This document shows, piece after piece, positions 42,299 through 59,334 of a stretch of DNA of 64,000 bases. Made by a program: the position numbers and the translations under genes. Each line of letters starts with the position of its first letter. Positions within the stretch are counted from its first letter, which is position 1. The notes beneath the pieces are model-generated. The model was not told the DNA's origin and ran no database searches. It saw only the letters and a list, made by a program, of their open reading frames with translations. Source of the DNA: Escherichia phage vB_EcoM_DE16; sequence record OP595145.1. One strand, written 5' to 3'.

Positions 42299-42307
42299 TT
42301 TTTCTCC

Positions 42308-43528: not shown

Positions 43529-43695
43529 TATTGCTCACCTTTTTAGCTGTATATTCCCCTGGTGGGATATTATGTTTAAAAAACAAAAGGCGGTCTAACC
43601 CCGCCTTGCACATTGTTTCTGGAATAGTCAAAGTTAGTAAAAGTTTATCACCTTTTCGGTTGAATATTTTATAAACTTCTCCTGCTCCATATTGT

Positions 43696-44097
43696 TTAGT
43701 ATTGCTCGCCACTAATACGTTCCTTAAGTTGTTTAATAGCTTCGATTGCATCTACATAAGAAGAGTTATACATGTGTTTCAGTGCCACTCGTATTAAAGG
43801 ATCTTTTGTGAAGAAATCAATAAGAAGCATAGCTTGATCATGTTTAGCTGCATTTGTCATAGATGGATAATTTTCACGAACCATATACGTGTTATTTTGC
43901 ATAAGGGTTCTTTCTAGTTCAATACAATGGATAGCTTTATCTAGGTTAATCTGACGTTCACCTTTAATACGTGTTGCGTATTTTGCCAATTTGCAAAAAC
44001 AAGGTGTGCCACCAACCAAATAAGCTAGTTCAATAGGTTGCATTGCCATTTTTGTGTAGTGATCACCGTCAACCTGATTATCAAAAGCATTAGACAT
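43696..44097 (-). CDS. hypothetical protein (133 aa)
   Basis: ORF in co-directional block. Confidence 0.5.
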   Translation of the reverse strand: MSNAFDNQVDGDHYTKMAMQPIELAYLVGGTPCFCKLAKYATRIKGERQINLDKAIHCIELERTLMQNNTYMVRENYPSMTNAAKHDQAMLLIDFFTKDPLIRVALKHMYNSSYVDAIEAIKQLKERISGEQY

Positions 44098-44353
44098 AAT
44101 TTTCCTCCTGAATTCCTACTGCACCTTCTTCTGGGTAGTCTGCATAATAAGCTACCCTACCTTGATAGATAATATCACCATCGTCATTGTAGATCGCTGT
44201 ATCTTCTTGAATTGTTATTTCAACATCAAGCAAATCTGGGTCTTTCTCGATAGTATAGTTCAAACCTAACATTTCAAACAGTTCGAAAATTTCGTTACCT
44301 GTTAATGTAATGCTCATATTTCCTCCTTTTATTGTGGTTAGCAGAGTATACAC
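44090..44353 (-). CDS. hypothetical protein (87 aa)
   Basis: ORF in co-directional block. Confidence 0.5.
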   Translation of the reverse strand: MYTLLTTIKGGNMSITLTGNEIFELFEMLGLNYTIEKDPDLLDVEITIQEDTAIYNDDGDIIYQGRVAYYADYPEEGAVGIQEENYV

Positions 44354-44403
44354 TAATATAAAATTTTTGTCAATAAAAAAGGGAGCAATAAGCTCCCTGA
44401 TTA

Positions 44404-45363
44404 TTAGATTCCAATGATAGTTGCTGCTCGTTTATCCTTGGATCTGGTGTTTGCTCTACTACGTGACAAACCTCCGCAAGATTCACAACGAATAATATCG
44501 AAAGAACTTACCGCAGTGTGGTATTGTTTACCAGTAACAACGTGAACGTGATCACTGCCACAACGAGAACAACGGACCTTCTCATCTGGGTAATAAGCGG
44601 ATAAGTTAGGATGCTGTGGAATCCACGGAAGGATTTTCATATACAAATCACGGAGTGAAACAACATCGCCATCATTGTAAATCTGCATACGTTCAAAAGC
44701 ATCACGATCACCTTCACAACATGCTTTCCATAAAGGGAACCCCTCGTTATCCAGTTTTTCACTTTCTGTTTCGAAATATGCTCCCATTTCTTTAAGGGAG
44801 TTGGAAGGAAGTGCAAATTGTTTCTTAGCTGCCTTCAATGTATCAACAACTACATAATTAGAAGGAGGAGCCATATCGTGATATGCAAATCGTTGGTTAA
44901 TGTATGCACGGTCAAACTTATACCCGTTGTGTGCCACAACTACATCTGCCTCATTCAGAAGGTTCCAAAGATCTTGGCAAAGCTCCCAATCATCTGTATG
45001 ATCAATATCAAAAAGAGGATAAGAAGACAAATTCTTACCTTCCACTTCACCAGTATACAGATCAGCAGAAGAATAAGATAACAAATAACCTCTGCGAATT
45101 ACCTGGTCTGGAGAAATGAAGGCTTTGAATCGACGGAAAGTATATGCAATCTCTGGTGCAGTTTCAACATCAATAATTTTAATAACTGGTTGTTTCTTTT
45201 TAACTGATTCTTGTTTACTTCCACTGAAACGTGCAAGGAAATCATTCACTGTGCTTTTTCTTGTTGGGCTACCTAAAACAATTGCTGCAATATTGCGAGA
45301 AGACATACCCTCTGCACTCATACTAAGGATATCTGCTTTCTGCTCTTCTGTTAATCTGCTCAC
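44404..45363 (-). CDS. DnaQ-like DEDD 3-prime-5-prime exonuclease with N-terminal HTH-like region and C-terminal Cys cluster
   Basis: IDVETA (Exo I), VAHNGYKFD (Exo II), YNDGDV (Exo III); CSRCG ... CESCG. Confidence 0.65.
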   Translation of the reverse strand: MSRLTEEQKADILSMSAEGMSSRNIAAIVLGSPTRKSTVNDFLARFSGSKQESVKKKQPVIKIIDVETAPEIAYTFRRFKAFISPDQVIRRGYLLSYSSADLYTGEVEGKNLSSYPLFDIDHTDDWELCQDLWNLLNEADVVVAHNGYKFDRAYINQRFAYHDMAPPSNYVVVDTLKAAKKQFALPSNSLKEMGAYFETESEKLDNEGFPLWKACCEGDRDAFERMQIYNDGDVVSLRDLYMKILPWIPQHPNLSAYYPDEKVRCSRCGSDHVHVVTGKQYHTAVSSFDIIRCESCGGLSRSRANTRSKDKRAATIIGI

Positions 45364-46049
45364 TCTGCCTCCTGTTGTGAGATGTATGACTGAAGCATAC
45401 TCTCAAATGTTGTATCGTCATTATCCCAGCGTTTCATGTATACCAACTGGAAAATTGTTTCTATCCATTCATCTGTTGTCATATGGACTTCTTCTCCATC
45501 CCAAGAAGTAAAATTAACACCATCTGGGAACCACGAGTAGTAAGTATCTTTAACTGTTTGGAAAAGCTCTGCTTGAGTTTTACAAGCTGAAAGAAGATTA
45601 AAACAAGTAATATCTCCAAACTTAATATCAAAATCTTGATAGGGTCGGATACTATCTGTTTTATCTCCCATTAGCATCTGATATGCTAACCAGTAACTGC
45701 CCCAACCTTTAACTTCTTTCTTTTTACCTTTATCTACGATCCATATATCGCCAATAGATTCATCAATAAGAATTATATCTGGATTTTTAAAGACTCCATC
45801 TTCTTTGTAGAAATTAAAAAGAATACTAGGAGTATGTAAACTATCTTTATCTATAGATACCACGATATAAGAAAATTTACCCGTCCTTTTATAATCTTTA
45901 TAACCTTGGAAACCATATTTCTCTAACTCATCATCAGCTTCTATTACAGTAACAACATCACCATTGTGGAACTCCACAAGATAATCTTTGGTTTCTGAAA
46001 GCTGAAGTGGTTTGATATCTAATCGTTCAGATTTATATTCTACAGGCAT
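45360..46049 (-). CDS. P-loop NTPase; annotated portion begins at first ATG but coding-like frame continues ~440 nt upstream without a start codon
   Basis: Walker A GVIGVGKT lies upstream of the first ATG; Walker B-like DIILIDES inside ORF. Confidence 0.45.
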   Translation of the reverse strand: MPVEYKSERLDIKPLQLSETKDYLVEFHNGDVVTVIEADDELEKYGFQGYKDYKRTGKFSYIVVSIDKDSLHTPSILFNFYKEDGVFKNPDIILIDESIGDIWIVDKGKKKEVKGWGSYWLAYQMLMGDKTDSIRPYQDFDIKFGDITCFNLLSACKTQAELFQTVKDTYYSWFPDGVNFTSWDGEEVHMTTDEWIETIFQLVYMKRWDNDDTTFESMLQSYISQQEAE

Positions 46050-46490
46050 TTTGAAGGCGTGTCTGAAAGTTTTTCCTACGCCAATAACTCCGCAATATTT
46101 TTCTAAACGTAGATGTTTTAGAATACCTAAGACTTTTGTTTTAGCTGCTTGGAAGGTGTGTCCGATATCTTCTGGCGGGTATTGCTTATCAATGATTTCG
46201 AACTCTTCCTTTGTGAAGGGACGTTTGTTTTTGGAGGCTCTTTCTGCATTTGTATCTCCTAGCCAACCTCCAATTTTAGTCTTGCTTTTACCCCAAAACT
46301 CTGTCTTATTTTTAAATTCCTTTTGAGCACCTGAAGGGATGTGCTTCGCAATGATTGTTCTTTTCTCTAATGCAGACGCTGCTTGGAAAGCAATCTGATC
46401 ATAATCAATTGCAGCTATTGTTTCTTCGTTGACATATAAATGAAGATCTTCAGGTTTAATTAAAATATAACCGCTAATATTTCCCCCTAA

Positions 46491-46700
46491 TTATTCATCG
46501 TCATCCTCTGTTGAGAATGTTTTAGTATACGGACATTGACGACTTTTCGGGATTGCTATAACTTCATCTTGGTTAGCGTTAGAATAGTAGCAATATTTTG
46601 TGTTGCCATTAACTTCAGAATCAGACAAGATTAAAGTAATTTGACCTGCTGCTACTGTGAAACTAAAAGCTAAAAGAACGACTGTCAGAATCTTTTTCAT
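46491..46700 (-). CDS. small secreted protein with signal peptide (69 aa)
   Basis: MKKILTVVLLAFSFTVAAGQ N-terminus; its TAA is in frame with the downstream P-loop frame. Confidence 0.5.
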   Translation of the reverse strand: MKKILTVVLLAFSFTVAAGQITLILSDSEVNGNTKYCYYSNANQDEVIAIPKSRQCPYTKTFSTEDDDE

Positions 46701-46772
46701 AACGCCTCCTAAAAAGCCTACCTCATTAAGTAGGTAGGCATAATATCATAACTAATCCCGCAAGTCAAGAAC

Positions 46773-47651
46773 TTATTTAAGGATTGTTGCTTTGGTTAAA
46801 TCTTCCATCAGACCTCGAATCTCATTGAAGCACAGAAGGACTGAAGCTTCAATACTACCTTCTTCGTCTGCAAAATATTTCGGAAAACGTAGTTTAGAAA
46901 GTTTAAACTCTTTATCCACTACAAAATCTACAACACCGTCATATTCAAGACCGATTGCAACCACATCTTTACCATCTTCTTTTAGTTCGACAGCTTTAGA
47001 CTCGTATAGGGATTCTTTACTCCAAACAACAACGCCCTCGCTATCCTCCATTTTGATATAATTTCCGAGAGTAATACGATCTGCTTCGTGATTCTCCAGC
47101 AATTCACCAAAACCTTTTACAATAGCTTCTTCGTGCACACTAAAACCTACCGAAGGGAAAGTCCCCAGAACGGAACGGAGGAAAGAAGTAATCTCTTCTG
47201 CAACCTTTTTACTTCCATTAAGAACATAAAGAAGATTCGTAGTTTTATCCAAGACAACATAGTTAAAGAAATCTTCAGGTTCTGTTTCAGGCAATAGTGC
47301 AAATTCAATATCTTCCTTCATTGCTTTGACTACTTCTTTATCGACATAAAACTCTTTACCTTCGCTCTCCATATCCTGACGCATTTCTTCTAGACGTTCA
47401 TTCAGAATGCGTTTAACTTTCTTTTTATCTACCTTCTTCACAGATTGACCTACATTAAGCAGTTCAAGATCTGAAAACTCTTTTACAAATTTAGAATCAT
47501 CTTCGAAACGAACAAGACCGATAGTATGTGACTGGGAGCCTTCTGCTGTTACAAATTCCAGAGGAATATCTGTAATGCTGTTAAGGGATGCTACAGAAGC
47601 ATTGTCACCAACAACCATAGGCAGAGCGGATTTAAAAGATTTTACAAACAT
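46773..47651 (-). CDS. hypothetical acidic protein (292 aa)
   Basis: ORF in co-directional block. Confidence 0.55.
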   Translation of the reverse strand: MFVKSFKSALPMVVGDNASVASLNSITDIPLEFVTAEGSQSHTIGLVRFEDDSKFVKEFSDLELLNVGQSVKKVDKKKVKRILNERLEEMRQDMESEGKEFYVDKEVVKAMKEDIEFALLPETEPEDFFNYVVLDKTTNLLYVLNGSKKVAEEITSFLRSVLGTFPSVGFSVHEEAIVKGFGELLENHEADRITLGNYIKMEDSEGVVVWSKESLYESKAVELKEDGKDVVAIGLEYDGVVDFVVDKEFKLSKLRFPKYFADEEGSIEASVLLCFNEIRGLMEDLTKATILK

Positions 47652-47707
47652 GTTTCCTCCTATTTAATACATCTCACATTACCGCCCGTAAAGGGCGGCT
47701 TACTACA

Positions 47708-48433
47708 TTACTTATTAATAATACCTGCAATATTAGGTTTGACAAAGGTCGATGGTTTCATGATCTTACCTTTATCATCAAAGAACACATACACTTTCTG
47801 TTTTTCATTATAAACAGCATGAACACCAGTGTATGCCCCTTCTGGACGATTGGCATTTCGTTCTTCAATTGCAGCGCATTCTTGTGCAATGGCTGAATCG
47901 ATATCTGAAGTTTTCCAAGTTTTCAGCAACTGTTGTTTAGTTGGATACTTGGAATCATTACTTTTCAATACCTCTTTAATAACTTTCTTTTCTGGATATT
48001 TTGAACGGATTAGAGTGTCACGAGACATACGCATAATACCCGCAGCCATTAGCGCCATTTGAACTGGCTCTGTAAATGTTTGTTCCAAAGCATCGAAATC
48101 GGTATACACAGTTGGAGTAAAAACATCGCCTACAGCATAGTCCAAGAAATTCATCGTATGTTCTTCACCAAAGAACATGTAAGTCAGATAACTGGATACT
48201 ACAAAAATATCCGCTGCTGCATCCAAGAGTTCTACATGATCGTTTACTTTCGCGGCTGTTTCATACTCTTTAAGCTCTTCACGAACGAACCCGATTTGAG
48301 ACATAAATAGCTCTTGAGTGAATTCAGGTTGTTCACCACCTCGTGCTTTGGCATTCCAATCAATCACGTGCTTCGCGGCATTTTTGAAAAATTCAGTATC
48401 GAACTTAATATCTTTAAAAAAATTCTCGATCAT
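47708..48433 (-). CDS. MazG-like nucleotide pyrophosphohydrolase domain protein
   Basis: EELKEYE ... ELLDAAADIF resembles MazG/HisE E-x2-E ... E-x3-D metal-binding helix pair. Confidence 0.4.
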   Translation of the reverse strand: MIENFFKDIKFDTEFFKNAAKHVIDWNAKARGGEQPEFTQELFMSQIGFVREELKEYETAAKVNDHVELLDAAADIFVVSSYLTYMFFGEEHTMNFLDYAVGDVFTPTVYTDFDALEQTFTEPVQMALMAAGIMRMSRDTLIRSKYPEKKVIKEVLKSNDSKYPTKQQLLKTWKTSDIDSAIAQECAAIEERNANRPEGAYTGVHAVYNEKQKVYVFFDDKGKIMKPSTFVKPNIAGIINK

Positions 48434-48442
48434 TATAACTCC

Positions 48443-48625
48443 TTATTTAAAATAGCTTTCTAGAAAGTTGCTAATATTTACTACAGTCTCACCCATGTAA
48501 ATTCCTGCGAAACCGAAAACAAGCATACGTGGAATATTGAAATACCATTTATCCGCCGGAAAAGATGCCAGAATTACAATAGCAATTGCTATCAACATCA
48601 TAAGAATTGTTGCTAAAATTATCAT
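48443..48625 (-). CDS. small membrane protein (60 aa)
   Basis: ATG 48625 after TGGAGG; MIILATILMMLIAIAIVILA hydrophobic helix. Confidence 0.45.
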   Translation of the reverse strand: MIILATILMMLIAIAIVILASFPADKWYFNIPRMLVFGFAGIYMGETVVNISNFLESYFK

Positions 48626-48816
48626 AAAAATGCCTCCAGGTATTTTGCACAATGATATGCTAAGAAACAAGAAACTACCGCATACCCAACTCCAGACATA
48701 CATGAATCAATCGCAACACATACGGTTCTTTTCTTTGAATTCTTAGGAAAGCTTTCCGAAGCATTCATACAATAAAAAGAAAGCACACTGAAAACGATTA
48801 AAATGGCTAAGAACAT
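48622..48816 (-). CDS. small membrane protein (64 aa)
   Basis: ATG 48816 preceded by AAGGAGGA; hydrophobic N-terminus. Confidence 0.5.
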   Translation of the reverse strand: MFLAILIVFSVLSFYCMNASESFPKNSKKRTVCVAIDSCMSGVGYAVVSCFLAYHCAKYLEAFL

Positions 48817-48825
48817 TTTTCCTCC

Positions 48826-49953
48826 TTATTCTGCTGGTTCCCAAGTGCCTGGGATCATTTCTCGAATACGAACACCAACAGGTTTTGTTGGAATACCTTC
48901 ATCTGAAAATTCTTCATACTCTATTTCAACGAACTGATTAATCAAGGTAGAAGCATTCTCTGCTTTACGATAATTGATAGTCTCATGAGCATCTTTACGC
49001 ATTAAGAATTCAACTACTTTACCATTTTCCATCTCACCTGTCAACACTCCATCGCCATTTTTATCACTTTTTGAATTTATTACTTTAACTTCAAGCGTAT
49101 GACGAGGCTTACGTTTAATAACATCATAAGAACGTTTATCAAATTCGTAAACTCCGTGAGCATTACGATATACTACACCTTCAGCTTTCTCAAGTAAAGC
49201 TTTTTCATAGAAAGCATCAAACTGTTCTTGGTTTTCGATATACTCTGTATGAACTACACAAATAAGCTCATCAAGACCATAATCCTCCACTACTGCCTTA
49301 AGAGCAGTAAGAACATCAACACGTTTTTCAAACGGTAGATCTGGAACTGGAATATCGTATACGTAATAATTCAGCAAAGGTGTATTTGCATTATGCTTCT
49401 TCCAGGCACTGTTAATTTGTTGCAGACTAAGGACACCTAACCCAGCAAACACTTCACCATCAAGAGGATGACCAACAACTTCACTAATAAAGTTTGGAAT
49501 ACCTTTCCAATGAGGTGGCAGGTTATACACTTCCCCAGCTTTTGATAAGCACTCCCCTTTCATGTTAATCATAGAACGTAACCCGTTCAGTTTGTATTGT
49601 GCATAACCAGGGAACACAACCCTTTCAGGATAATCTTTATAATCCTGGCATTTCATTGGTGTGGAAGGAACATGGTTTTCAGCTTCTTCTTTTGTTTTAT
49701 AATAGCCATTCTTTAACTGTTTTGTCCATTTGGCAAAAGCTTCAAGTTCAGCTTGTTCTTCCGGTGTTGTTTCATTGGAACGACCAATGTTTTTTGCTTC
49801 TGCTGTATAAGATTTTTCTGTGATTTTTCCACCTACCCTTCCATGAGCTACAGTAACAACTGCACCATCTGTATACACTGTCCACTGTTTAAGTTTTCCT
49901 TTTGAATCTTTACCATACAGCGTTTGATTTGTTTGTTGCATTAGTCCTCCCAT
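48826..49953 (-). CDS. ATP-dependent DNA ligase (nucleotidyltransferase superfamily)
   Basis: motif I KLNGLR, motif III LDGEVF, motif IV EGVVYR, motif V VIKRK in canonical order; 375 aa. Confidence 0.65.
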   Translation of the reverse strand: MGGLMQQTNQTLYGKDSKGKLKQWTVYTDGAVVTVAHGRVGGKITEKSYTAEAKNIGRSNETTPEEQAELEAFAKWTKQLKNGYYKTKEEAENHVPSTPMKCQDYKDYPERVVFPGYAQYKLNGLRSMINMKGECLSKAGEVYNLPPHWKGIPNFISEVVGHPLDGEVFAGLGVLSLQQINSAWKKHNANTPLLNYYVYDIPVPDLPFEKRVDVLTALKAVVEDYGLDELICVVHTEYIENQEQFDAFYEKALLEKAEGVVYRNAHGVYEFDKRSYDVIKRKPRHTLEVKVINSKSDKNGDGVLTGEMENGKVVEFLMRKDAHETINYRKAENASTLINQFVEIEYEEFSDEGIPTKPVGVRIREMIPGTWEPAE

Positions 49954-50162
49954 TTAAAAACTGAAATTTTCAATCTGTTACACACTTCATCCAAATCTGC
50001 GTCGAGTAACGTTGTAGATGTTGCCAACATATAATCAATGCTTGTGAAACCTTGCCCTTTGGCATAGTCAAGCATATCTTCATACATATCTTCAAGATCA
50101 CCGTCATCAAAAGTAGCTAGAAAATCCTCGTCCCCACTACGAACATAAAATGCAGTACTCAT
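49941..50162 (-). CDS. hypothetical acidic protein (73 aa)
   Basis: ORF in co-directional block. Confidence 0.45.
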   Translation of the reverse strand: MSTAFYVRSGDEDFLATFDDGDLEDMYEDMLDYAKGQGFTSIDYMLATSTTLLDADLDEVCNRLKISVFKWED

Positions 50163-50350
50163 TCTTCTTCATCCCAAGATTCAAAAGCACAACAATCATC
50201 GGTTTCTATAATACCAACACGTCCGCAGGTATTGCAAGTGATTTTATCCCCGTAGAATAAATAATTTTTATCACCCTCTGTGTTTACAGTTATGTCATTA
50301 CTACCACAAGGGCAAGTCAGCCAACCAACAACAACGATATCTTTTTTCAT
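50159..50350 (-). CDS. small Cys-rich protein (63 aa)
   Basis: CPCG ... CNTCG pairs. Confidence 0.45.
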   Translation of the reverse strand: MKKDIVVVGWLTCPCGSNDITVNTEGDKNYLFYGDKITCNTCGRVGIIETDDCCAFESWDEEE

Positions 50351-50359
50351 AATCCCTCC

Positions 50360-50686
50360 TTAAGCGTTCAGTTCGTTGTTGAGTTCGTAAATCTCTTCTT
50401 GAAGAGCATCAATCTCTTCCTCCAAACGGGAGATCTCTTCTTTTAGATATACCATTTCGGATTCTTTCTCTTCTAATTCATTTTCAAATTTTACTTTATT
50501 AGCCTCATTTTCATAATGCAGTTCAGCGTAATCATCACGCATTTGTTCAATAAGATGAATCAGAGACAAGATATAATTATCTCCCGTTTCATCACGCCAC
50601 TCTTCACCGTGACGGAGAACGGTAATTCGTCCAGTATCTTCATCTAAAATTGTCTCATATTTACGATCATCTGTATAAATCTGCAT
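50360..50686 (-). CDS. hypothetical coiled-coil protein (108 aa)
   Basis: ORF in co-directional block. Confidence 0.5.
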   Translation of the reverse strand: MQIYTDDRKYETILDEDTGRITVLRHGEEWRDETGDNYILSLIHLIEQMRDDYAELHYENEANKVKFENELEEKESEMVYLKEEISRLEEEIDALQEEIYELNNELNA

Positions 50687-50695
50687 TATTTCTCC

Positions 50696-51100
50696 TTATT
50701 GAAGTTTAAGTGAACCACGAAGACGTTTCTCTTGCTGATCACGGATATATTGTGGAACCTCGTGAATTGAATCATTACCGTGCCTATTTTCAACAACTAA
50801 AGAGATAACTTGATAACCAAACTCTTCAGCAAGAGCTAGATAAGGTTTAAGTTCTTTCTCTGTGGTTGAAGTATTAGAAACAATAATCTTGTTAAGATTA
50901 GATGCCATAGCATCACGAACAATACCCTGACACCATGCGTGTGCTTTACCTACATTTTCTGGCTTCCAGTCGTAAACACCACTTTCTGTGTAATGATATT
51001 GATCTGCCTCACAGATAGGCCAATAACCTTCAGAAATAATTTCTGCTACCGTAGATTTACCAGCACCTGAAACGCCACGTAAAATGATAAGTTGTTTCAT
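50696..51100 (-). CDS. polynucleotide kinase-like P-loop kinase
   Basis: Walker A GVSGAGKST; KIIVSNTSTTEKELKPYLALAEEFGYQV resembles T4 Pnk kinase domain segment. Confidence 0.55.
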   Translation of the reverse strand: MKQLIILRGVSGAGKSTVAEIISEGYWPICEADQYHYTESGVYDWKPENVGKAHAWCQGIVRDAMASNLNKIIVSNTSTTEKELKPYLALAEEFGYQVISLVVENRHGNDSIHEVPQYIRDQQEKRLRGSLKLQ

Positions 51101-52033
51101 TTATCCTCCAAAGAAGTTTTCGATTTTTTCACGTCGCTCTTGCTGATTTAAAGCAGCCCATTGAGTCTTCGTAAAATTATTTCGAATCCATTCTAACAAA
51201 GCGTAATATTCTTCGTCAACAATTTGTTTGGCATTTTTCGGATTATCCCAAATCAGATCCCACTTTTTATCTCCACCGCGCATAAGAAACTTCTTAGTAA
51301 GATAGTGTGGTGATTTAATTTTTAAAAGTAAGTTGAACGGATAGTTTGTTTCACGAACTACAAACCCTTCGTGTTTACAATGTTTAGACATTTCAACAAC
51401 ATCTGAAAACTTAACCATTGGATGAACTTCAGGACGCTTAAATTTGGTGACAGAAGCAATTCCATCAAGAGCACCTTCAGGTAACATAAAACTTGTCCCA
51501 TCAGGTTTTTGAATTCTGGCACCAATTAAGTATGCACCTGGTTCTTCTTCGACAATATGCGGATCAGAAGGATCACAGATTTCAAAAAGGAAAGTTGCTT
51601 TTGCGCTCTCTGTCCATTTGATGAAATGTTCTATGTCATCACACTCTGAAACAATATGATTCTTTGCAATACTTGCAAAATCTGATTCAAGGCTTCCTGT
51701 TGTCGATACAATAAGTTGACCTTTATATACACCTACAGAGGCCATAAAACCATTTACTTTACGAACCACATCTACAAGTTCATCCGCTGGTAGATCTGTG
51801 CCATTCTCAAAACGATTAAAAATCTTAGTGAAAGGCCAAATAACAACATTGTCATCACCATCAACAACGATTCCGCGACATTCTAGAAGACGAGAATCAA
51901 TGTTCCATAGGTTATCCCAGAAAACTTTGTTCTTATACTTAAGAACAGATAGACCAGAATACTCTCCTTCTTTATATGTTTTCTTATGAACTAAACCTTT
52001 TTCAACCAAATCGTCGCAATTAAATTTAGTCAC
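51101..52033 (-). CDS. RNA ligase-like nucleotidyltransferase
   Basis: motif I KVNGF, motif III FLFEIC, motif IV EGFVVR, motif V LLKIKS; flanked by kinase and phosphoesterase. Confidence 0.5.
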   Translation of the reverse strand: MTKFNCDDLVEKGLVHKKTYKEGEYSGLSVLKYKNKVFWDNLWNIDSRLLECRGIVVDGDDNVVIWPFTKIFNRFENGTDLPADELVDVVRKVNGFMASVGVYKGQLIVSTTGSLESDFASIAKNHIVSECDDIEHFIKWTESAKATFLFEICDPSDPHIVEEEPGAYLIGARIQKPDGTSFMLPEGALDGIASVTKFKRPEVHPMVKFSDVVEMSKHCKHEGFVVRETNYPFNLLLKIKSPHYLTKKFLMRGGDKKWDLIWDNPKNAKQIVDEEYYALLEWIRNNFTKTQWAALNQQERREKIENFFGG

Positions 52034-52034
52034 A

Positions 52035-52586
52035 TTACTCTCCTTTGATTATTTTGTGATGGTCTACAGTTACGATATCTCGTTTACTCATCATAGAAAT
52101 TATCTCATCAAAATGCAAGATTTTTCCGTGTGCATCCCAACCCACATCTAACATTTTACCATAAGCTTCATCAGGGAAAGATCCGTGGGAATGCCCGTGT
52201 AGCATGATTGATCCACGACCTTGTTTATTCCAGGAGGCAATAGGGTAATGGCTTAAGACGAAGAACAGCTTCTGGTATTTCACTTCGTCATAATACACCA
52301 CTTCGCCATACTCTGCAAGCACTTCTCGGTGCTTGCTGTAATCATGGTTCCCAACAAGATAAGTGATATCCCCTTGCAGACGGGAAGCAATCTTACGGGT
52401 ATCTTCTTCAGTCCCGAAACAGAAGTCGCCCAAATGCCACATCTTAACACCAGGAGTAGTAGCGCATTTATTCCATGCTTCGATCAGTGCTTCTGTCATG
52501 TGGTCCATATCTTCCCACGGTCGATATTCAGGAGCAAACTCTCGTATACGTTTGTGCATAAAATGCAAATCACTTGTAATAAACAT
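52035..52586 (-). CDS. calcineurin-like metallophosphoesterase
   Basis: SDLHF, GDFCFG, GNHD, HGHSH motifs. Confidence 0.65.
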   Translation of the reverse strand: MFITSDLHFMHKRIREFAPEYRPWEDMDHMTEALIEAWNKCATTPGVKMWHLGDFCFGTEEDTRKIASRLQGDITYLVGNHDYSKHREVLAEYGEVVYYDEVKYQKLFFVLSHYPIASWNKQGRGSIMLHGHSHGSFPDEAYGKMLDVGWDAHGKILHFDEIISMMSKRDIVTVDHHKIIKGE

Positions 52587-52942
52587 TAGTATAATCCCTC
52601 GCTAAATAGGTCACGATCATGACCATTACGTTCGTAGTCAATCTGGTCTGCGTGTTTTGCAATAATGTATGCATCTTCACGACTCCACCAATTGTAGTAT
52701 TGATCAATAAAACCTTGATTGTTTGGAAGACAATGCACTTTATCAAGCACACCTGCTTCTTTCAATACATTCAATTGTGCTGATAATATAGGATTTGCAT
52801 GTCGAACACAAGGAATAATTAACTCTTCACCATTATTCAAAATATATTTATTCGCAGCACAGACGATAACACGTTGCACATAATGACCCTCACCAATCCA
52901 GGTAAGAGGTTGGTAACAAATGTTCTGATCAATACTACTCAT
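52586..52942 (-). CDS. hypothetical protein (118 aa)
   Basis: ORF in co-directional block. Confidence 0.5.
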   Translation of the reverse strand: MSSIDQNICYQPLTWIGEGHYVQRVIVCAANKYILNNGEELIIPCVRHANPILSAQLNVLKEAGVLDKVHCLPNNQGFIDQYYNWWSREDAYIIAKHADQIDYERNGHDRDLFSEGLY

Positions 52943-52953
52943 TAAGTTTCTCC

Positions 52954-53310
52954 TTAATAGTGAACACGAATCATTTTAATACCATAACGCAGCATGGATT
53001 CTTTTGCAAGCATGAATTTATCCCCAGCGGCGGGATTAGAAGTATGCACGAAAATGGTAGGTGAACCAAAGCAAGGTTTACCAAACGCCAGAAGTTCTTC
53101 CAAACGCAAGAAAACATCATACCCGTCTTGATCAGAATCTTCACCCAAATCGTTGTCAAAATGCCACTCGTCTACAAAACGATAACCCTTCTGCACCTCA
53201 TTCATGTAACGAGAGGCAAGAAGTTCCTGTGAGGTTTTAAACCAGATTGCATCTGGACAACCATAATCTTTTGGATCACGTAAATCATCAAGCCAAATAA
53301 TAGTACCCAT
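52954..53310 (-). CDS. hypothetical protein (118 aa)
   Basis: ORF in co-directional block. Confidence 0.5.
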   Translation of the reverse strand: MGTIIWLDDLRDPKDYGCPDAIWFKTSQELLASRYMNEVQKGYRFVDEWHFDNDLGEDSDQDGYDVFLRLEELLAFGKPCFGSPTIFVHTSNPAAGDKFMLAKESMLRYGIKMIRVHY

Positions 53311-53320
53311 ATAACCTCCT

Positions 53321-53791
53321 CTAAGCTGGCATTATTAAAAAAGAACTCTCCACTTCAAAATGCCAATCATCCACAAGCCCTGATTCCCAATCCTTCTCTT
53401 CATGGAAAGAGCAAATCCAACGGTACATACCTGGCGGTGTATTCTCAACATCTTCTGGCAACCCGTAATCCAAAGCTGTCAAACCGTTCTCTGTAAAACT
53501 AGGATGGAGATTAGGAGCTTTCAATACAGAAACCATGCCTCCAACATCTACAGCCACAATCCACTCTGTCATGTATGGGCTGTCATATTGAGGCTCATCA
53601 GAACCTACCTCAACAGCCTCTGTGCGTAAGATGATAATAGCCTGCTCTGTGATTGGGGCTTTGACAATATAACCTTGGTCCTCAAAAAGATCGATAACCT
53701 CGAACTCATCGCCGTTTTCGACACCATAACTCTTATTCAAAGAGATAAACTTCGGGTTATCATCGTAAGCTTTAGTTACTTTAATTTTCAT
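53321..53791 (-). CDS. hypothetical protein (156 aa)
   Basis: ORF in co-directional block. Confidence 0.5.
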   Translation of the reverse strand: MKIKVTKAYDDNPKFISLNKSYGVENGDEFEVIDLFEDQGYIVKAPITEQAIIILRTEAVEVGSDEPQYDSPYMTEWIVAVDVGGMVSVLKAPNLHPSFTENGLTALDYGLPEDVENTPPGMYRWICSFHEEKDWESGLVDDWHFEVESSFLIMPA

Positions 53792-54012
53792 TTTTCCTCC
53801 TTCACTTTAACCTCAAATTCTACAGGCTTACCCTCAATGTAAAAACACTGATACTCTGCCTTATCATCCTCGTCACGAGGCCAAGTTACCAAGGAGTTAT
53901 AGCAATCTTCTGGTGCTTTGAAGATGTTTTTAGTCTCCACAGTAACATTCCCATTAAGTGTTGCCAATACCACCCAACCAGCTACAGGGATCATAGTGTC
54001 TCCACTTTCCAC
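53788..54012 (-). CDS. hypothetical protein (74 aa)
   Basis: ORF, ATGA-type overlap. Confidence 0.45.
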   Translation of the reverse strand: MESGDTMIPVAGWVVLATLNGNVTVETKNIFKAPEDCYNSLVTWPRDEDDKAEYQCFYIEGKPVEFEVKVKEEK

Positions 54013-54173
54013 GTTTTACCATTATCAACCAAGGTCTTTGCTACAGCATACTCCTTCCCATTAACAAGGAAATAATAAACGATAAAAGATTTCCCGATTG
54101 TTACTGTCTTAGTAACCTCTACACGTTTAACGCCTTGCATGTATTTTGCCTTACCGGAATAGAGTAAAATCAT
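53991..54173 (-). CDS. hypothetical protein (60 aa)
   Basis: ORF in co-directional block. Confidence 0.4.
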   Translation of the reverse strand: MILLYSGKAKYMQGVKRVEVTKTVTIGKSFIVYYFLVNGKEYAVAKTLVDNGKTWKVETL

Positions 54174-54451
54174 TTTGCATTCCTCTTGTTGTTGATAACA
54201 TCCATAGCAGTATATGGTTTATTAGTGCCATGATACTCCAGAATCATTGGAGAGCCTTCTTGCACTACTTCAAAGATACCATAAACAGAACTTTCAGCAA
54301 ATACCATTTGCTTCGTGCCTTCATCGTTTACAACGAGAGAAAACTTCTTGCCTGTCCCGTTGAGGATCTCGTATTTCTTGCCAGCAGTGAATAATCCAGA
54401 GTACCACTCATTATCTGTTGCTTTTACACACTTCAGGAAAGTCTTGATCAT
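54170..54451 (-). CDS. hypothetical protein (93 aa)
   Basis: ORF in co-directional block. Confidence 0.5.
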   Translation of the reverse strand: MIKTFLKCVKATDNEWYSGLFTAGKKYEILNGTGKKFSLVVNDEGTKQMVFAESSVYGIFEVVQEGSPMILEYHGTNKPYTAMDVINNKRNAK

Positions 54452-54801
54452 TTCTTTTTGCTCCTCTTTTTAGATTTCTCATACAAACCTAACACAGCCG
54501 CTTCTTTTGCACAAGTAGGAACTGAAGTCATTCCTCTTCTTTTTGCTTCTGGAAGATTGAGTGTCCACCATCCGAACCAATAAATTTGGTCTGCCGTGAG
54601 TGGTTCAGCCATTGGATCTGCCTCCTGCTCCTCAAGACGTTGCAACGCTTCTTCAATCTTCTCGATTGGTGTGTCAAAGACGAATGCCTCCGTATCAAAT
54701 TTATCTTTCTTAGGAACTGATTTGGCTACTTTGAGAACCTCGTTTTTCGGTTTCTTAGTAACGTTCTTTGGCTTTGATAACTTCTTCTGTGTTTTCGCCA
54801 C
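54448..54801 (-). CDS. lysine-rich basic protein (117 aa), possible nucleic-acid binding
   Basis: K-rich N and C termini. Confidence 0.45.
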   Translation of the reverse strand: MAKTQKKLSKPKNVTKKPKNEVLKVAKSVPKKDKFDTEAFVFDTPIEKIEEALQRLEEQEADPMAEPLTADQIYWFGWWTLNLPEAKRRGMTSVPTCAKEAAVLGLYEKSKKRSKKK

Positions 54802-54994
54802 TTACTACCTCCATACGATCTAAAAAGTCATTCACAAATCTCCAGTAACGTTGACCTGTTCTAAGATCTTCATAGATAACCACAGGATCAAACACTTTAG
54901 ATATTCCGGCAGGTTTTGGAAATTCCACTACTGTATATAAACCACCTTTTGCTACACAAGAATAGGTTACGCCTGTAATTGGATAGTTGCTCAT
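54755..54994 (-). CDS. hypothetical protein (79 aa)
   Basis: ORF in co-directional block. Confidence 0.45.
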   Translation of the reverse strand: MSNYPITGVTYSCVAKGGLYTVVEFPKPAGISKVFDPVVIYEDLRTGQRYWRFVNDFLDRMEVVSGENTEEVIKAKERY

Positions 54995-55185
54995 TTCTTT
55001 ACGTACTCCATGATTGGGGTATGGTCGCCAGTAAGCGTAACACGGCTGTAGGACACATCTTGTGTCTTCAGTGTATCAATCCACTCTAAGAAGTGTTCTT
55101 TCGCTTCTGTGTAGTTCTGTGTGCCTTTAACAACGTGTATACCATCTAGAGTTACACGGAATACCATTTGAATAACGTCTTTCAT
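54991..55185 (-). CDS. hypothetical protein (64 aa)
   Basis: ORF in co-directional block. Confidence 0.45.
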   Translation of the reverse strand: MKDVIQMVFRVTLDGIHVVKGTQNYTEAKEHFLEWIDTLKTQDVSYSRVTLTGDHTPIMEYVKK

Positions 55186-55281
55186 TTCTTACCTCCTTTG
55201 TTGTCAAAATAACTTACCAGAACATCGTGAACCACACACATGGCAAAAATCAGAACAATTGTTGTCAGGACTGGATTCTCA

Positions 55282-55605
55282 CTAATTAGTGCTATCATCT
55301 TTAACCACCTCCAATTGCCTTTCGAGTTTGACTTTGTTTGAGAACTGATAATGACACAACTTACATTGCATGTCAACAATCTGATCGTGATTTAACCCTA
55401 CAATTTTAACTTCCTTTGCACCATCCCACTCCAAATACTCAAAGCCATCCAAATGATTACTCTTGTCCAACAGGAATGCTATCTGCTGCCATTCAATCTG
55501 AATGTCATTTAAATGATATGCTGCACAGAAGATATCCTCATAGTAAAAGACGATCATTGTCATTGCTTCGTCCAGCACAACTACCTCTTGTCTTGTAAAT
55601 CTCAT
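55282..55605 (-). CDS. hypothetical protein (107 aa), first gene of minus-strand block
   Basis: ORF adjacent to divergent intergenic region. Confidence 0.5.
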   Translation of the reverse strand: MRFTRQEVVVLDEAMTMIVFYYEDIFCAAYHLNDIQIEWQQIAFLLDKSNHLDGFEYLEWDGAKEVKIVGLNHDQIVDMQCKLCHYQFSNKVKLERQLEVVKDDSTN

Positions 55606-57065: not shown

Positions 57066-57140
57066 GGCCCTGTAGCTCAATGGGAGAGCTGTCGGCTCAT
57101 AACCGATAGGTAGCTGGATCGAAACCAGCCAGGGCCACCA
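57066..57140 (+). tRNA. tRNA-Met/Ile2 (anticodon CAT)
   Basis: full cloverleaf: acceptor GGCCCTG/CAGGGCC, loop CTCATAA, encoded CCA; resembles lysidine-type Ile tRNA. Confidence 0.8.
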
Positions 57141-57142
57141 AC

Positions 57143-57217
57143 GTCTTTATGGTGTAATGGATAGCACAGGAGTCTTCTAAACTCTTAGTCAAGGTTCGAT
57201 TCCTTGTAAAGACACCA
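57143..57217 (+). tRNA. tRNA-Arg (anticodon TCT)
   Basis: acceptor GTCTTTA/TAAAGAC, anticodon loop CTTCTAA, T-loop TTCGATT, CCA. Confidence 0.8.
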
Positions 57218-57414
57218 GAATATTTTAACATGAATTAGCTCAAGTGATTTGAACCCCACTACTGATCATGGTGGCAGAGAATGAGGCAAGTATGTCAGAC
57301 ATTATAAACAAAGGCCACGGTTATATTAGAAGACATAGACGCTCGAAGAGCACCGTTCGTGGAGAACGGGGGTTGGTGGAGTCACCATTCATGGTAAAAT
57401 GTTTTAAAAAACTA

Positions 57415-57444
57415 TTGACAACAAACATTATTTTATGTTAGATT
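57415..57444 (+). promoter_or_regulatory. promoter AACTATTGACA-N18-TAGATT
   Basis: same conserved -35 context as 56826 and 58570. Confidence 0.45.
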
Positions 57445-57452
57445 ATAAGTAT

Positions 57453-57543
57453 GGAAGGGCAAATCGACGTGGCGACGAAAACGGTCTTGAAAACCGCCGA
57501 GCTTGAAAGAGCCTTGGGAGTTCGACTCTCCCTCCTTCCGCCA
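57453..57543 (+). tRNA. tRNA-Ser (anticodon TGA), type II
   Basis: acceptor GGAAGGG/TCCTTCC, loop CTTGAAA, long variable arm, T-loop TTCGACT, CCA. Confidence 0.7.
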
Positions 57544-57548
57544 GATTA

Positions 57549-57634
57549 GGTAGATTGGTGAAATGGTAGCCACAACAGTTTGCTAAACTGTAGTCGGAAA
57601 CGGCGTGTAGGTTCGAGTCCTACATCTACCGCCA
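57549..57634 (+). tRNA. tRNA-Ser (anticodon GCT), type II
   Basis: acceptor GGTAGAT/ATCTACC, loop TTGCTAA, long variable arm, CCA. Confidence 0.75.
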
Positions 57635-57764
57635 AGTTCTTTTTAATATAGCTTACTTTAATAGAGTAAACTTTCGGCAGATGGCCTCCACCATCTTACC
57701 GATACTTCATAGTTAGTGGTGCGAACACTGGCTATTTTAAAAAGAATTTAAATACTAGCATTTA

Positions 57765-57852
57765 GGTGAGTTAATTCCGTAGGGGTAGCGGGGCAGACTG
57801 TAAATCTGTTATCATTGCGATTCGGGTGGTTCGACTCCATCACTCACCACCA
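57765..57852 (+). tRNA. tRNA-Tyr (anticodon GTA), type II
   Basis: acceptor GGTGAGT/ACTCACC, anticodon arm GCAGA-CTGTAAA-TCTGT, CCA. Confidence 0.75.
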
Positions 57853-57858
57853 AATTAA

Positions 57859-57944
57859 GATGAGTTGGCTGAATGGTTTAAGCGGCGGACTGTTAATCCG
57901 TGTTCGAAAGAACGATATAGGTTCAAATCCTATACTCATCGCCA
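57859..57944 (+). tRNA. tRNA-Asn-like (anticodon GTT) with atypical 15-nt variable arm
   Basis: anticodon arm GCGGA-CTGTTAA-TCCGT matches Asn tRNAs, but GTTC-GAAA-GAAC hairpin inserted in variable region. Confidence 0.5.
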
Positions 57945-57951
57945 GAATTAT

Positions 57952-58028
57952 GGACTTGTAGAGTTAAGGTAAACCCCCAGTCGCCAAGAGGCTTCTGGAA
58001 TTGCAGGTATCGAATCCTGCCGAGTCCC
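57952..58028 (+). other. degenerate tRNA-like element
   Basis: 7-bp acceptor pairing and T-arm GCAGG ... CCTGC with 8-nt loop, but no canonical anticodon arm. Confidence 0.3.
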
Positions 58029-58034
58029 AGCTTT

Positions 58035-58109
58035 GCTCCTATAGTATAATGGCTATTACAACGGTTTTGTAATCCGTGGATCTCTGTTCGATTCAGAGTG
58101 GGAGCACCA
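58035..58109 (+). tRNA. tRNA-Thr (anticodon TGT)
   Basis: acceptor GCTCCTA/TGGGAGC, loop TTTGTAA, T-arm CTCTG-TTCGATT-CAGAG, CCA. Confidence 0.75.
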
Positions 58110-58569
58110 ACATAACAGGTAAGAACATTTAGGCTACTGAGAAATCATCCGAGGCAATCAGACCTATCTTCTGTTAAGTGTTCTTATCGTTGTGAAGAAA
58201 GCAAACTTATTGAATGTAAGCGGACGAAAGACATTCACTAACCTGTAGTAAGGTCGAGCCAAAGCGCGGTAATGAGTTCCGAGGTTAGTATTCACAACAC
58301 AACATTAAGAGCACTGTGATTGATCGTCGTATCCTGTGCACAAGGTCTGCTCGAAAGACAGTGTTCTTAGTATTGTGTTGATCACAAAAAGAGTTACCTG
58401 AAACTTGACCGGAGTAGGGTTGGATGGGGCAAAAGAAGAAGCGGCTCTCCCATCGACAGCAACGAAGAATAATATTTGACTTTGGTTTTGTATTATTTTA
58501 AGTTAGCTTACCGAACGTAGGGCTAGTCACCCAATGGGATACTCGTCACTGTCCCACTCAATAAAACTA

Positions 58570-58599
58570 TTGACAACCAATAGTAAAATGTAGTATAGT
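58570..58599 (+). promoter_or_regulatory. promoter AACTATTGACA-N18-TATAGT
   Basis: perfect -35 and 5/6 -10, just upstream of tRNA-Gly. Confidence 0.55.
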
Positions 58600-58610
58600 A
58601 AAGATGTAGG

Positions 58611-58684
58611 GCGTTCTTGGTGTAGCGGTAGCATTCCGTCCTTCCAAGTCGGCGGCACGAGTTCGATCCTCGTAGAACGCTCCA
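58611..58684 (+). tRNA. tRNA-Gly (anticodon TCC)
   Basis: acceptor GCGTTCT/AGAACGC, loop CTTCCAA, T-arm ACGAG-TTCGATC-CTCGT, CCA. Confidence 0.7.
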
Positions 58685-58782
58685 AATTATTTAATAAAGG
58701 GTTGCCAGAAAACTTTCTCTTTTACTCATGGTTTTCTCCTTCTCTCACACCTCTTCTGGTTGCCCTTCATTAAATGATTTAT

Positions 58783-58858
58783 TGGTTTGTAGTGTAGTCA
58801 GGTAGCACACGACACTTTGACTGTCGTAGGTTTGGTTCAAATCCAGACAGACCAGCCA
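58783..58858 (+). tRNA. tRNA-Gln (anticodon TTG)
   Basis: U1-A72 acceptor TGGTTTG/CAGACCA, anticodon arm CGACA-CTTTGAC-TGTCG, discriminator G, CCA. Confidence 0.8.
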
Positions 58859-58863
58859 TATAA

Positions 58864-58940
58864 CGGAATTTAGCTCAGTTTGGTAGAGTGTACGCTTTGG
58901 GAGCGTATTGTCGCAGGTTCGAATCCTGCAATTCCGACCA
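58864..58940 (+). tRNA. tRNA-Pro (anticodon TGG)
   Basis: acceptor CGGAATT/AATTCCG, anticodon arm TACGC-TTTGGGA-GCGTA, CCA. Confidence 0.8.
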
Positions 58941-58946
58941 ATTAAA

Positions 58947-59020
58947 TGTTTCGTAGTTCAATGGTAGAACCCACGACTGATAATCGTGAGACACAAGTTC
59001 GATTCTTGTCGAAACAACCA
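58947..59020 (+). tRNA. tRNA-Ile (anticodon GAT)
   Basis: acceptor TGTTTCG/CGAAACA, D-stem GTTC/GAAC, anticodon arm CACGA-CTGATAA-TCGTG, CCA. Confidence 0.75.
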
Positions 59021-59022
59021 GT

Positions 59023-59092
59023 TTCCCGTTAGACTTACAGGATAAGAGTTCCACAGCTTATTGTGATGCTGGTTCGAATCCAGCACGGGATA
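59023..59092 (+). other. degenerate tRNA-like element
   Basis: canonical T-arm GCTGG-TTCGAAT-CCAGC and acceptor pairing but no canonical anticodon arm; too short for full cloverleaf. Confidence 0.3.
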
Positions 59093-59098
59093 CCTAAT

Positions 59099-59177
59099 AG
59101 CGGGATAGAGGAGTCTGGTCGTCCTCGCCAGTTTCATATGCTGGAGATCATTGGTTCAAATCCAATTCCCGCCTCCA
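59099..59177 (+). tRNA. tRNA-Met (anticodon CAT), 1-72 mismatch
   Basis: D-stem GAGG/CCTC, anticodon arm CCAGT-TTCATAT-GCTGG, T-arm ATTGG-TTCAAAT-CCAAT, CCA; A1 opposite C72. Confidence 0.65.
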
Positions 59178-59292
59178 AATATCGCTTGCCAGCGGTATCT
59201 TTGAAGACCTTGCCTGGTTCCTTCTAAGATGGAGGGGTGCGACTCCTTAACGCACAATTATAATAAAGCATTTCAAATTAACAGTATTTATT

Positions 59293-59316
59293 AGCCTCCT
59301 TATTGGAGGCTTTTTG
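59293..59316 (+). terminator. Rho-independent terminator (AGCCTCC-TTAT-GGAGGCT-TTTTT)
   Basis: perfect 7-bp stem plus T run after tRNA array. Confidence 0.75.
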
Positions 59317-59334
59317 CTATCTATTGAATAAAAC

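Follow-up and report, generated by a model that had tools for sequence, protein, structure and literature searches.

The window analysed here, a stretch of 64,000 nucleotides of Escherichia phage vB_EcoM_DE16 (OP595145.1), belongs to a Phapecoctavirus genome (phAPEC8-like, Stephanstirmvirinae), and its positions 50696..52586 hold a cassette of three genes encoding a metallophosphoesterase, an RNA ligase and a small P-loop kinase. An earlier note on this DNA, made by a model from the sequence, had placed three adjoining minus-strand open reading frames (ORFs) at these positions; they are found exactly there (183, 310 and 134 amino acids in the order of transcription), and all of the motifs that the note quoted were located in the phosphoesterase, the ligase and the kinase. 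The 3.1 kilobases (kb) around the cassette are 99.1% identical to the corresponding region of Shigella phage SF1-1 and match 121 phage records, with at least 80% of the length covered in 56.

The genes are closely packed: the stop codon of ORF118, the gene immediately upstream, overlaps the ATG of the phosphoesterase gene by one base, a single base separates the phosphoesterase stop from the GTG of the ligase gene, and the kinase ATG follows the ligase stop with a gap of zero bases, with a good Shine–Dalgarno sequence ahead of each cassette start. Such junctions are too tight for separate promoters or terminators, and a promoter/terminator scan returned no minus-strand terminator-like site between 48891 and 57200. 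The tight spacing, the ribosome-binding sites and the lack of a terminator-like site in this interval make co-transcription of the cassette likely.

Families and active sites of the encoded proteins

All three family assignments of the earlier note held in the profile searches that it had proposed and in structure tests. The motif residues of the ligase, kinase and phosphoesterase are invariant in homologues down to approximately 36–50% identity. Searches of the PDB with single sequences were nearly uninformative (E = 0.08 for the ligase; P-loop only for the kinase), and family profiles were used instead.

In the ligase, the quoted motifs are located at residues 92 (KVNGF), 148 (FLFEIC), 222 (EGFVVR) and 236 (LLKIKS), and the residues K92, N94 and G95 of motif I, E151 of motif III, E222 and G223 of motif IV, and K238 and K240 of motif V are invariant in 27 homologues with identities down to 49%. 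The sole Pfam match of the protein is RNA_lig_T4_1 (PF09511; E = 3.4e-15; 56.9 bits, the cut-off being 28.3; profile positions 1-227/227), which is also the family of T4 Rnl1, a longer protein of 374 amino acids compared with 310 here. Against the T4 RnlA equivalog of NCBIfam (TIGR02308) the ligase reaches 23 bits, far below the cut-off of 242.25, and it is therefore not an orthologue of T4 RnlA; its subfamily consists of proteins of 300-320 amino acids with 1753 database relatives. Searched against the PDB, the family profile matched T4 Rnl1 (2c5u, E = 6.4e-11) as the only structure, with motifs I, III, IV and V aligned to K99, E159, E227 and K240/K242, respectively, and no Trl1 chain was matched at E <= 1. 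The AlphaFold model of the ligase has a predicted local distance difference test (pLDDT) score of 90.4, and the top Foldseek matches of this model are Trl1 ligase domains together with T4 Rnl1 (E = 6e-13 to 4e-11, template-modelling score ~0.62), followed by the archaeal Rnl3, Rnl2 and Rnl5 enzymes, whereas DNA ligases match weakly (E ~1e-2, all >= 4e-3). The alignments with fungal Trl1 comprise 360-372 columns and span the C-terminal helical domain, and neither Pfam nor Foldseek indicated a ligase domain of the Pnkp type. The RNA-ligase reading of the earlier note can thus be narrowed to the Rnl1/Trl1 clade by Pfam, family profile and predicted structure, and the protein is the predicted sealing enzyme of the cassette.

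The kinase has its P-loop, GVSGAGKST, at residue 9 and matches Pfam AAA_33 (E = 2.7e-10) and PHROG 505, 'polynucleotide kinase' (7.9e-8). A deoxynucleoside monophosphate (dNMP) kinase, which the earlier note had named as an identity that would overturn its proposal, was matched at 1.2e-4 in the P-loop only. The family comprises minimal P-loop proteins of 131-141 amino acids with 331 relatives, and its profile matched the kinase domain of Pnkp1 best among solved structures (4xrp, 1.9e-7), with T4 Pnk (1ly1, 7e-5) and CthPnk (4gp7, 6.5e-4) behind it. As the alignment covers residues 1-146 of 1ly1, the cassette kinase aligns across the whole kinase domain of T4 Pnk, and both the P-loop and the position of the T4 general base D35 are kept. 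In 34 homologues the P-loop G9-x-x-G12-x-G14-K15-S16-T17 is conserved and D33, in the motif A-D-x-[YF]-H, is invariant; this residue aligns with T4 D35 (in R-D-D-Y-R), the general base whose counterpart in CthPnk is D38, and the invariant R106 aligns with the T4 lid residue R122. The likeness to the T4 Pnk kinase domain seen earlier is therefore borne out, since the nearest solved relatives are polynucleotide kinases and the catalytic aspartate is aligned. The kinase appears to be Pnk-like in mechanism, with its membership incomplete at the substrate-binding residues, and its predicted role is that of a 5'-OH polynucleotide kinase that heals the 5' end.

For the phosphoesterase, the motifs SDLHF (residue 5), GDFCFG (53), GNHD (79) and HGHSH (130) were all found, and the six metallophosphoesterase motifs (DxH, GD, GNH[DE], H, GH and GHxH) are invariant in 34 homologues, comprising D6, H8, G53-D54, G79-N80-H81, H113, G131-H132 and H134. 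Homologues of the protein carry PF12850 or PF00149 matches, the protein matches PHROG 547, 'phosphoesterase', at 1.2e-55, and the nearest solved structure to the homologue profile is the metallophosphoesterase aq_1665 of Aquifex (1xm7, E = 7e-23), whereas no lambda-phosphatase or Pnkp-type enzyme in the PDB was matched. The calcineurin-type assignment of the earlier note thus stands at the level of the superfamily, by motifs and by the 1xm7 profile, and does not extend to the Pnkp/lambda-phosphatase subfamily. An orthologue of the Pnkp phosphatase domain was considered and rejected for the same protein: the nearest relative is 1xm7, and hhalign gave a probability of 5.8% against the corresponding domain of the cyanobacterial fusion protein described below. 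The metallophosphoesterase domain of CthPnkp has an established healing activity as a 2',3'-cyclic phosphodiesterase and 3'-phosphatase (PMC2190708), and by this precedent RNA-end healing by the cassette enzyme would be chemically plausible. Its predicted role is in 3'-end healing, as a 2',3'-cyclic phosphodiesterase and/or as a 3'- or 2'-phosphatase.

The module is probably larger than described earlier, as an upstream gene that the note had overlooked encodes a cREC (cyclic-phosphate-processing Receiver) protein, whose match to Pfam cREC_REC (PF20274) scores 50.5 bits (E = 3.4e-13; threshold 27 bits). The Rec-like residues D8-D9, D52/D54, S91 and K98/K103 are invariant in seven homologues, and the gene lies beside RNA-repair genes without a histidine-kinase partner. 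In rV5-like loci the cREC homologue is placed between the ligase and kinase genes, which is strong evidence for its membership of the module. cREC domains have been predicted to resolve cyclic phosphates on RNA ends or ADP-ribose derivatives and are reported to be operonic with RNA ligases (PMC7824862; PMC9503650); the predicted role here would be the opening of RNA 2',3'-cyclic phosphates or the processing of ADP-ribose cyclic phosphate. ORF118, which separates the cREC and phosphoesterase genes, is a widespread phage protein in which profile searches found no known domain; as it has no link to repair genes elsewhere, it is probably a lineage-specific passenger and not a core member.

Linkage of the three genes in viruses and cells

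The viral sample consisted of 80 IMG/VR loci with a ligase homologue (36-88% identity), in which partners were sought within 6 kb. In 71 of the 80 loci the neighbours of the ligase homologue include a phosphoesterase homologue and in 67 a kinase homologue, and in 63 the whole trio occupies one strand, over a median of 2.2 kb. The controls were 77 phage loci chosen around homologues of ORF118 from outside the Phapecoctavirus genus; a phosphoesterase was found in none of them and a kinase in one (Fisher p = 7e-35 for phosphoesterase linkage, with loci that are phylogenetically related and not independent). The commonest order is phosphoesterase–ligase–kinase, with 26 loci (and a further three with cREC in front and six with cREC inside), then kinase–ligase–phosphoesterase (20) and ligase–kinase–phosphoesterase (six), besides others. 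At least five gene orders of the trio occur, ligase–cREC–kinase among them, and the linkage is kept down to 36% ligase identity. The trio is also present in contigs of Cardiobacteriaceae and Pasteurellaceae.

A second line of comparison comes from cyanobacteria. The chromosome of Leptolyngbya sp. PCC 7375 (JH993797.1; locus L180, 3768..5906) encodes a protein of 712 amino acids with the architecture AAA_33–Metallophos–RNA_lig_T4_1, in which the same three activities are joined on a single polypeptide in the domain order of Pnkp with an Rnl1-family ligase domain, and the fusion gene lies upstream of an RtcB gene at a distance of 1.6 kb. The C-terminal ligase domain of the fusion is 33% identical to the phage ligase family over its full length, including the C-terminal helical region (hhalign E = 1.7e-41), and the kinase domain is weakly but significantly related to the phage kinase (E = 9e-7), while the phosphoesterase domain belongs to a subfamily other than that of the phage phosphoesterase. 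This architecture was read in L180; approximately 25 other Leptolyngbyaceae loci (L167-L199) were checked for the ligase match only. The fusion provides independent evidence that the three types of activity act together on RNA ends, and permuted linkage and natural fusion, as two independent comparative lines, support a functional tie within the trio.

These results bear on the possibility that the three genes are unrelated neighbours, for instance a kinase for nucleotides or metabolites, a phosphatase acting on proteins or nucleotides and a tail-fibre attachment factor like T4 gp63, whose adjacency reflects the packing of accessory genes. Such a reading would account for the PHROG and GenBank labels 'tail fiber protein attachment catalyst', inherited from T4 gp63, for the lack of some Pnk substrate-binding arginines in the kinase, for a phosphoesterase of an uncharacterised subfamily and for the loss of the ligase and kinase alone in one relative (L083, discussed below). 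However, linkage survives at least five gene orders and divergence to 36% ligase identity, the same three types of activity are naturally fused, the cassette does not lie in a structural-gene module and the catalytic residues are all conserved, which leaves mere adjacency quite improbable.

Proposed RNA repair and alternative pathways

The earlier note had read the genes as the three activities of RNA end-healing and sealing encoded as separate proteins, and this reading is supported by the families, the linkage and the fusion. The cassette is probably a phage heal-and-seal module for RNA similar to T4 Pnkp and Rnl1, in which the activities are divided among separate polypeptides. Ribonucleases acting in host defence or as toxins (anticodon nucleases or other metal-independent RNases) would cut tRNAs or other essential RNAs, leaving ends with a 2',3'-cyclic phosphate and a 5'-OH. 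The Pnk-like kinase of 134 amino acids would phosphorylate the 5'-OH end, the cyclic phosphate would be opened and taken off by cREC and/or the metallophosphoesterase, leaving a 3'-OH, and the Rnl1-type ligase, adenylylated on Lys92, would transfer AMP to the 5'-phosphate and seal the break. The genes would be translated from one leftward transcript in a region of early genes or genes of nucleic-acid metabolism. The sharing of tasks by cREC and the phosphoesterase, the common transcript and the role in counter-defence are features of this scheme that we infer from the families and the gene layout.

The same three steps, 5'-phosphorylation, 3'-end healing and ATP-dependent sealing, are carried out by the likewise phage-encoded T4 Pnkp (PseT) and Rnl1 (gp63), a tRNA repair pathway directed against the anticodon nuclease PrrC. 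The repair genes of T4 are not adjacent, whereas the cassette here is one compact unit. In T4 the kinase is fused to a phosphatase of the HAD/DxDxT type (PMC3592404), while here a separate binuclear metallophosphoesterase and cREC are found in its place. Pnkp/Hen1 of Clostridium thermocellum combines the same set of kinase, metallophosphoesterase and ligase that is divided among three ORFs here, and the Pnkp1–Rnl–Hen1 system of Capnocytophaga gingivalis, whose Pnkp1 kinase domain is the best solved match noted above, provides a precedent for a ligase on its own polypeptide (PMC4411300). The cassette differs from bacterial Pnkp in the subfamily of its phosphoesterase and in its Rnl1-type ligase, and no Pfam match to a Hen1-like methyltransferase was found among the flanking ORFs scanned (41300..55605).

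A further close system is the 'type 2' sirtuin-linked neighbourhood of Iyer, Burroughs, Anantharaman and Aravind (Iyer et al., Viruses 2022), the prototypes of which are Escherichia phage V5 and Proteus phage Mydo. It contains the same families, namely a tRNA ligase like that of T4, cREC, a small kinase and a calcineurin-like phosphoesterase, with MazG nearby (PMC9503650). The rV5-like loci (L005-L009 and L016) are 58-80% identical to the cassette in the ligase, 64-75% in the kinase and 58-63% in cREC. The order differs, being cREC–ORF118–phosphoesterase–ligase–kinase in the window and phosphoesterase–x–x–ligase–cREC–kinase–SIR2 in the rV5-like loci. All of the components of type 2 are present in the window, but the defining linkage of the sirtuin is absent; a sirtuin adjoining the cassette was sought and rejected, as the SIR2 homologue lies 30 kb away, amid ORFs without Pfam matches. 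The phosphoesterase, described as 'occasional' in type 2, is the most constant partner of the ligase in our 80-locus sample.

Several observations weigh against an RNA-repair function. In the kinase a nearly invariant His36 stands where T4 Pnk has the essential Arg38, there is no arginine at the position aligned to T4 Arg126, and the protein, with its 134 amino acids, is unusually small; Iyer et al. (2022) name it only 'a nucleotide kinase' (PMC9503650). The invariant residues R8, H107 and H113 could serve as stand-ins for the absent arginines, judging from the alignment. The phosphoesterase itself falls below the Pfam threshold (Metallophos_2, E = 1.2e-4, 22.6 bits against a cut-off of 27), and the aq_1665/1xm7 subfamily is uncharacterised, has no known substrate and shows no specific relationship to the phosphatase domain of the cyanobacterial protein, which is of the Pnkp type. 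A sigma-70-like promoter match at 51219..51190 on the minus strand, inside the 3' end of the ligase gene, consists of TTGACG and TAGAAT with an extended TG, separated by an 18-base spacer, approximately 90 bases upstream of the kinase start. The kinase may thus also have its own start of transcription, or the match may be due to chance because shuffled sequence contains almost as many of its kind; the scan gave 41 promoter-like sites compared with 33 expected, and no usable promoter assignment. A close relative, a Phapecoctavirus-like contig of 153 kb (L083, IMGVR_UViG_3300014004_000001), keeps cREC, ORF118 and the phosphoesterase, but has the ligase and kinase replaced by a single unrelated ORF of 112 amino acids (5914..6252) with a HEAIH motif (HExxH, zinc-protease-like), after which ORF108 and the DNA ligase follow as usual; the module is accordingly dispensable. 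Finally, RNA, and specifically tRNA, is the substrate that we infer, and literature searches for experiments on RNA ligases, kinases or RNA repair of the phAPEC8 or rV5 type found none. As a separate observation, the ligase/kinase site of L083 behaves like an exchangeable slot for accessory genes.

Trl1 of fungi and plants consists of ligase, kinase and cyclic phosphodiesterase domains, with the ligase preceding the kinase as in the cassette. Its cyclic phosphodiesterase is of the 2H type, in place of which the cassette has a metallophosphoesterase and cREC as healing enzymes, and its ligase needs a 2'-phosphate that is then removed by Tpt1. An analogous pathway can be drawn for the phage. The cyclic phosphate would be opened by cREC or the phosphoesterase to a 3'-OH/2'-phosphate end, the kinase would act on the 5' end, the ligase would need or tolerate the 2'-phosphate and leave it at the junction, and the sirtuin would remove it with NAD+ in the manner of Tpt1/KptA, while cREC, the phosphoesterase and MazG would clear the ADP-ribose cyclic-phosphate by-product. 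Fungal Trl1 ligase domains are the top structural matches of the ligase model, and motif I of the ligase has the form KxNG as in Trl1, the form in T4 Rnl1 being KxDG. In rV5-like relatives the SIR2 gene directly follows the kinase gene, and the window contains a SIR2 protein that is 55% identical to the L005 sirtuin, as well as a MazG-like protein. Iyer et al. (2022) proposed exactly such a pathway for the V5/Mydo neighbourhood, with the sirtuins removing the 2'-phosphate and with MazG in the list for the rV5-type repair neighbourhood (PMC9503650), and stand-alone 2'-phosphate-dependent ligases exist, such as MciRNL of Mucorales, which, like the ligase here, is separate from the healing enzymes (PMC10946426).

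A 2'-phosphate pathway is nevertheless unlikely. The sirtuin is 30 kb away here and occurs in 10 of the 80 ligase loci, compared with 71 for the phosphoesterase, and the ligase profile matches T4 Rnl1 and no Trl1 chain. A full phosphomonoesterase in the cassette would make a 2'-phosphate intermediate unnecessary, and we know of no sirtuin for which ADP-ribosyl transfer to an RNA 2'-phosphate, or NAD+-dependent 2'-phosphate removal, has been demonstrated. It is equally doubtful that the cassette and the unlinked sirtuin together form a bacterial-virus counterpart of the eukaryotic Trl1/Tpt1 pathway, in which cREC would open the ends to a 2'-phosphate, a Trl1-like ligase would seal them, the sirtuin would strip the phosphate with NAD+, and the aq_1665-type phosphoesterase and MazG would dispose of the by-product; this specific assignment of steps has a similarly small chance of being correct. 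If it were true, it would give first functions to cREC, to the aq_1665-type metallophosphoesterases and to this clade of sirtuins.

The surroundings of the cassette could also suggest a role in DNA-end processing, in which the kinase and phosphoesterase would clean 5'-OH/3'-phosphate DNA termini and feed them to the nearby DNA ligase during replication, recombination or the repair of restriction damage. The cassette is clustered with genes for a DNA ligase, RdgC, exonucleases, NT5C and ThyX, and 27 of 82 scanned loci (including two near-identical phage records) have a DNA ligase homologue no farther than 6 kb away. T4 Pnk acts on DNA as well, and NCBIfam gives a faint match of the phosphoesterase to PdeM, a ligase-associated DNA-damage endonuclease (E = 0.003). 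On the other hand, this match is far under its cut-off (17 bits against 150), most of the trio loci are without a DNA ligase, and DNA-end processing leaves unexplained the second ligase, of the RNA-specific Rnl1/Trl1 clade, at the centre of the cassette, the fusion beside RtcB and the association with cREC. The separate ATP-dependent DNA ligase encoded 1.1 kb downstream implies that the phage does not need the cassette ligase for DNA sealing, and a DNA-directed function is very improbable.

The idea of repair at this locus is not new. The labels 'putative RNA ligase', 'metallophosphatase/phosphoesterase' and 'ATPase / putative polynucleotide kinase' are already in use in GenBank records, a computational description of this type of neighbourhood in rV5- and Mydo-like phages was given by Iyer et al. 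(2022), who predicted the same for related phages (PMC9503650), and split repair systems are known from Pnkp1–Rnl–Hen1 and the stand-alone ligase of Mucorales. Added by the present analysis are the identification of an aq_1665-type phosphoesterase as the most constant partner of the ligase, the wide distribution of the trio in permuted order, the cyanobacterial fusion and the natural variant without ligase and kinase (L083).

Effectors that cleave tRNA or other RNA are a major arm of antiphage defence, including PrrC, RloC, AriB of PARIS, retron-associated nucleases, Cas13 and the accessory nucleases of type III CRISPR systems, and to our knowledge T4 Pnkp/Rnl1 is essentially the only phage RNA-repair counter-measure that has been studied experimentally. 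The trio is found in therapeutically relevant myophages of E. coli, Klebsiella and Shigella. RNA repair by the cassette, if true, would extend a known principle and not reveal a new one, but would give aq_1665-type metallophosphoesterases and a minimal polynucleotide kinase of 134 amino acids a function, and would help to predict which defence systems these phages escape. Its demonstration would also test the predicted cyclic-phosphodiesterase activity of cREC.

The tRNA array and neighbouring genes

Between the upstream end of the module and the divergently transcribed tRNA array on the opposite strand lie 3.7 kb (Table 1). The '12 phage tRNAs nearby' of the earlier note are roughly right, as ARAGORN reported ten tRNA genes and Rfam gave 11 matches above threshold and one sub-threshold match. 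Of the 80 ligase loci, 16 have tRNA genes no more than 6 kb from the ligase, compared with three of the 77 controls (p = 0.0026), a modest enrichment that is compatible with tRNA as a substrate. The proposed repair of cleaved tRNAs thus fares differently in its two parts: an RNA heal-and-seal module is supported, whereas the specific link to tRNA is weakly supported by this enrichment.

Two tRNA-like elements of the array, at 57453..57539 and 57765..57849 on the plus strand, come from Rfam and were not reported by ARAGORN. One of the two is a tRNA scoring 39 bits, which exceeds the gathering score, and the other is a long-arm element whose match to the tRNA-Sec model (37.4 bits) falls short of the gathering score of 47. 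A weak RyhB-like Rfam match at 59264..59318 (29 bits; gathering score 55) is probably due to chance.

Table 1. Positions in the window of the cassette genes and of the other features discussed in the text.
Feature	Position	Strand	Length (amino acids)	Remark
cREC protein	52954..53310	-	118	Probable fourth member of the module
ORF118	52586..52942	-	118	phrog_839; between cREC and phosphoesterase
Metallophosphoesterase	52035..52586	-	183	aq_1665 (PDB 1xm7) subfamily
ATP-dependent RNA ligase	51101..52033	-	310	Rnl1/Trl1 clade; GTG start
P-loop kinase	50696..51100	-	134	Pnk-like
ORF108	50360..50686		108	Coiled-coil ORF; only coiled-coil or 'hol-like' profile matches
ATP-dependent DNA ligase	48826..49953			1.1 kb downstream of the cassette; Pfam/PHROG
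MazG-like PRA-PH pyrophosphatase	47708..48433	-		2.3 kb downstream of the cassette
RdgC	46773..47651	-		
RNase_H-superfamily exonuclease	44404..45363	-		
NT5C-type 5'-nucleotidase	42308..42916	-		
ThyX	41300..42298	-		
SIR2-family protein	19990..20805	-		Possible distant partner; Pfam SIR2 1.9e-22
tRNA array	57066..59177	+		10-12 genes; context and candidate substrates

The same-strand genes downstream of the cassette (41300..48433) are those of nucleotide and DNA metabolism. Public product names of the neighbouring genes were examined in Escherichia phage vB_EcoM_ESCO25 (OM386656.1, locus L001), and three of them were rejected. The gene at 9660..10016 of this locus (window 52954..53310), named 'putative RNA ligase and tail attachment protein', encodes a cREC domain according to the profiles; the gene at 9292..9648 (window 52586..52942, ORF118), named 'anti-restriction nuclease', contains no known domain in the profiles; and the gene at 7061..7387 (window 50360..50686, ORF108), named 'DNA polymerase I', has coiled-coil or 'hol-like' matches only. 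Product names have likely been mis-transferred to the cREC, ORF118 and ORF108 genes, and in other records ORF108 carries the label 'hol-like chemotaxis', which the profile searches do not support.

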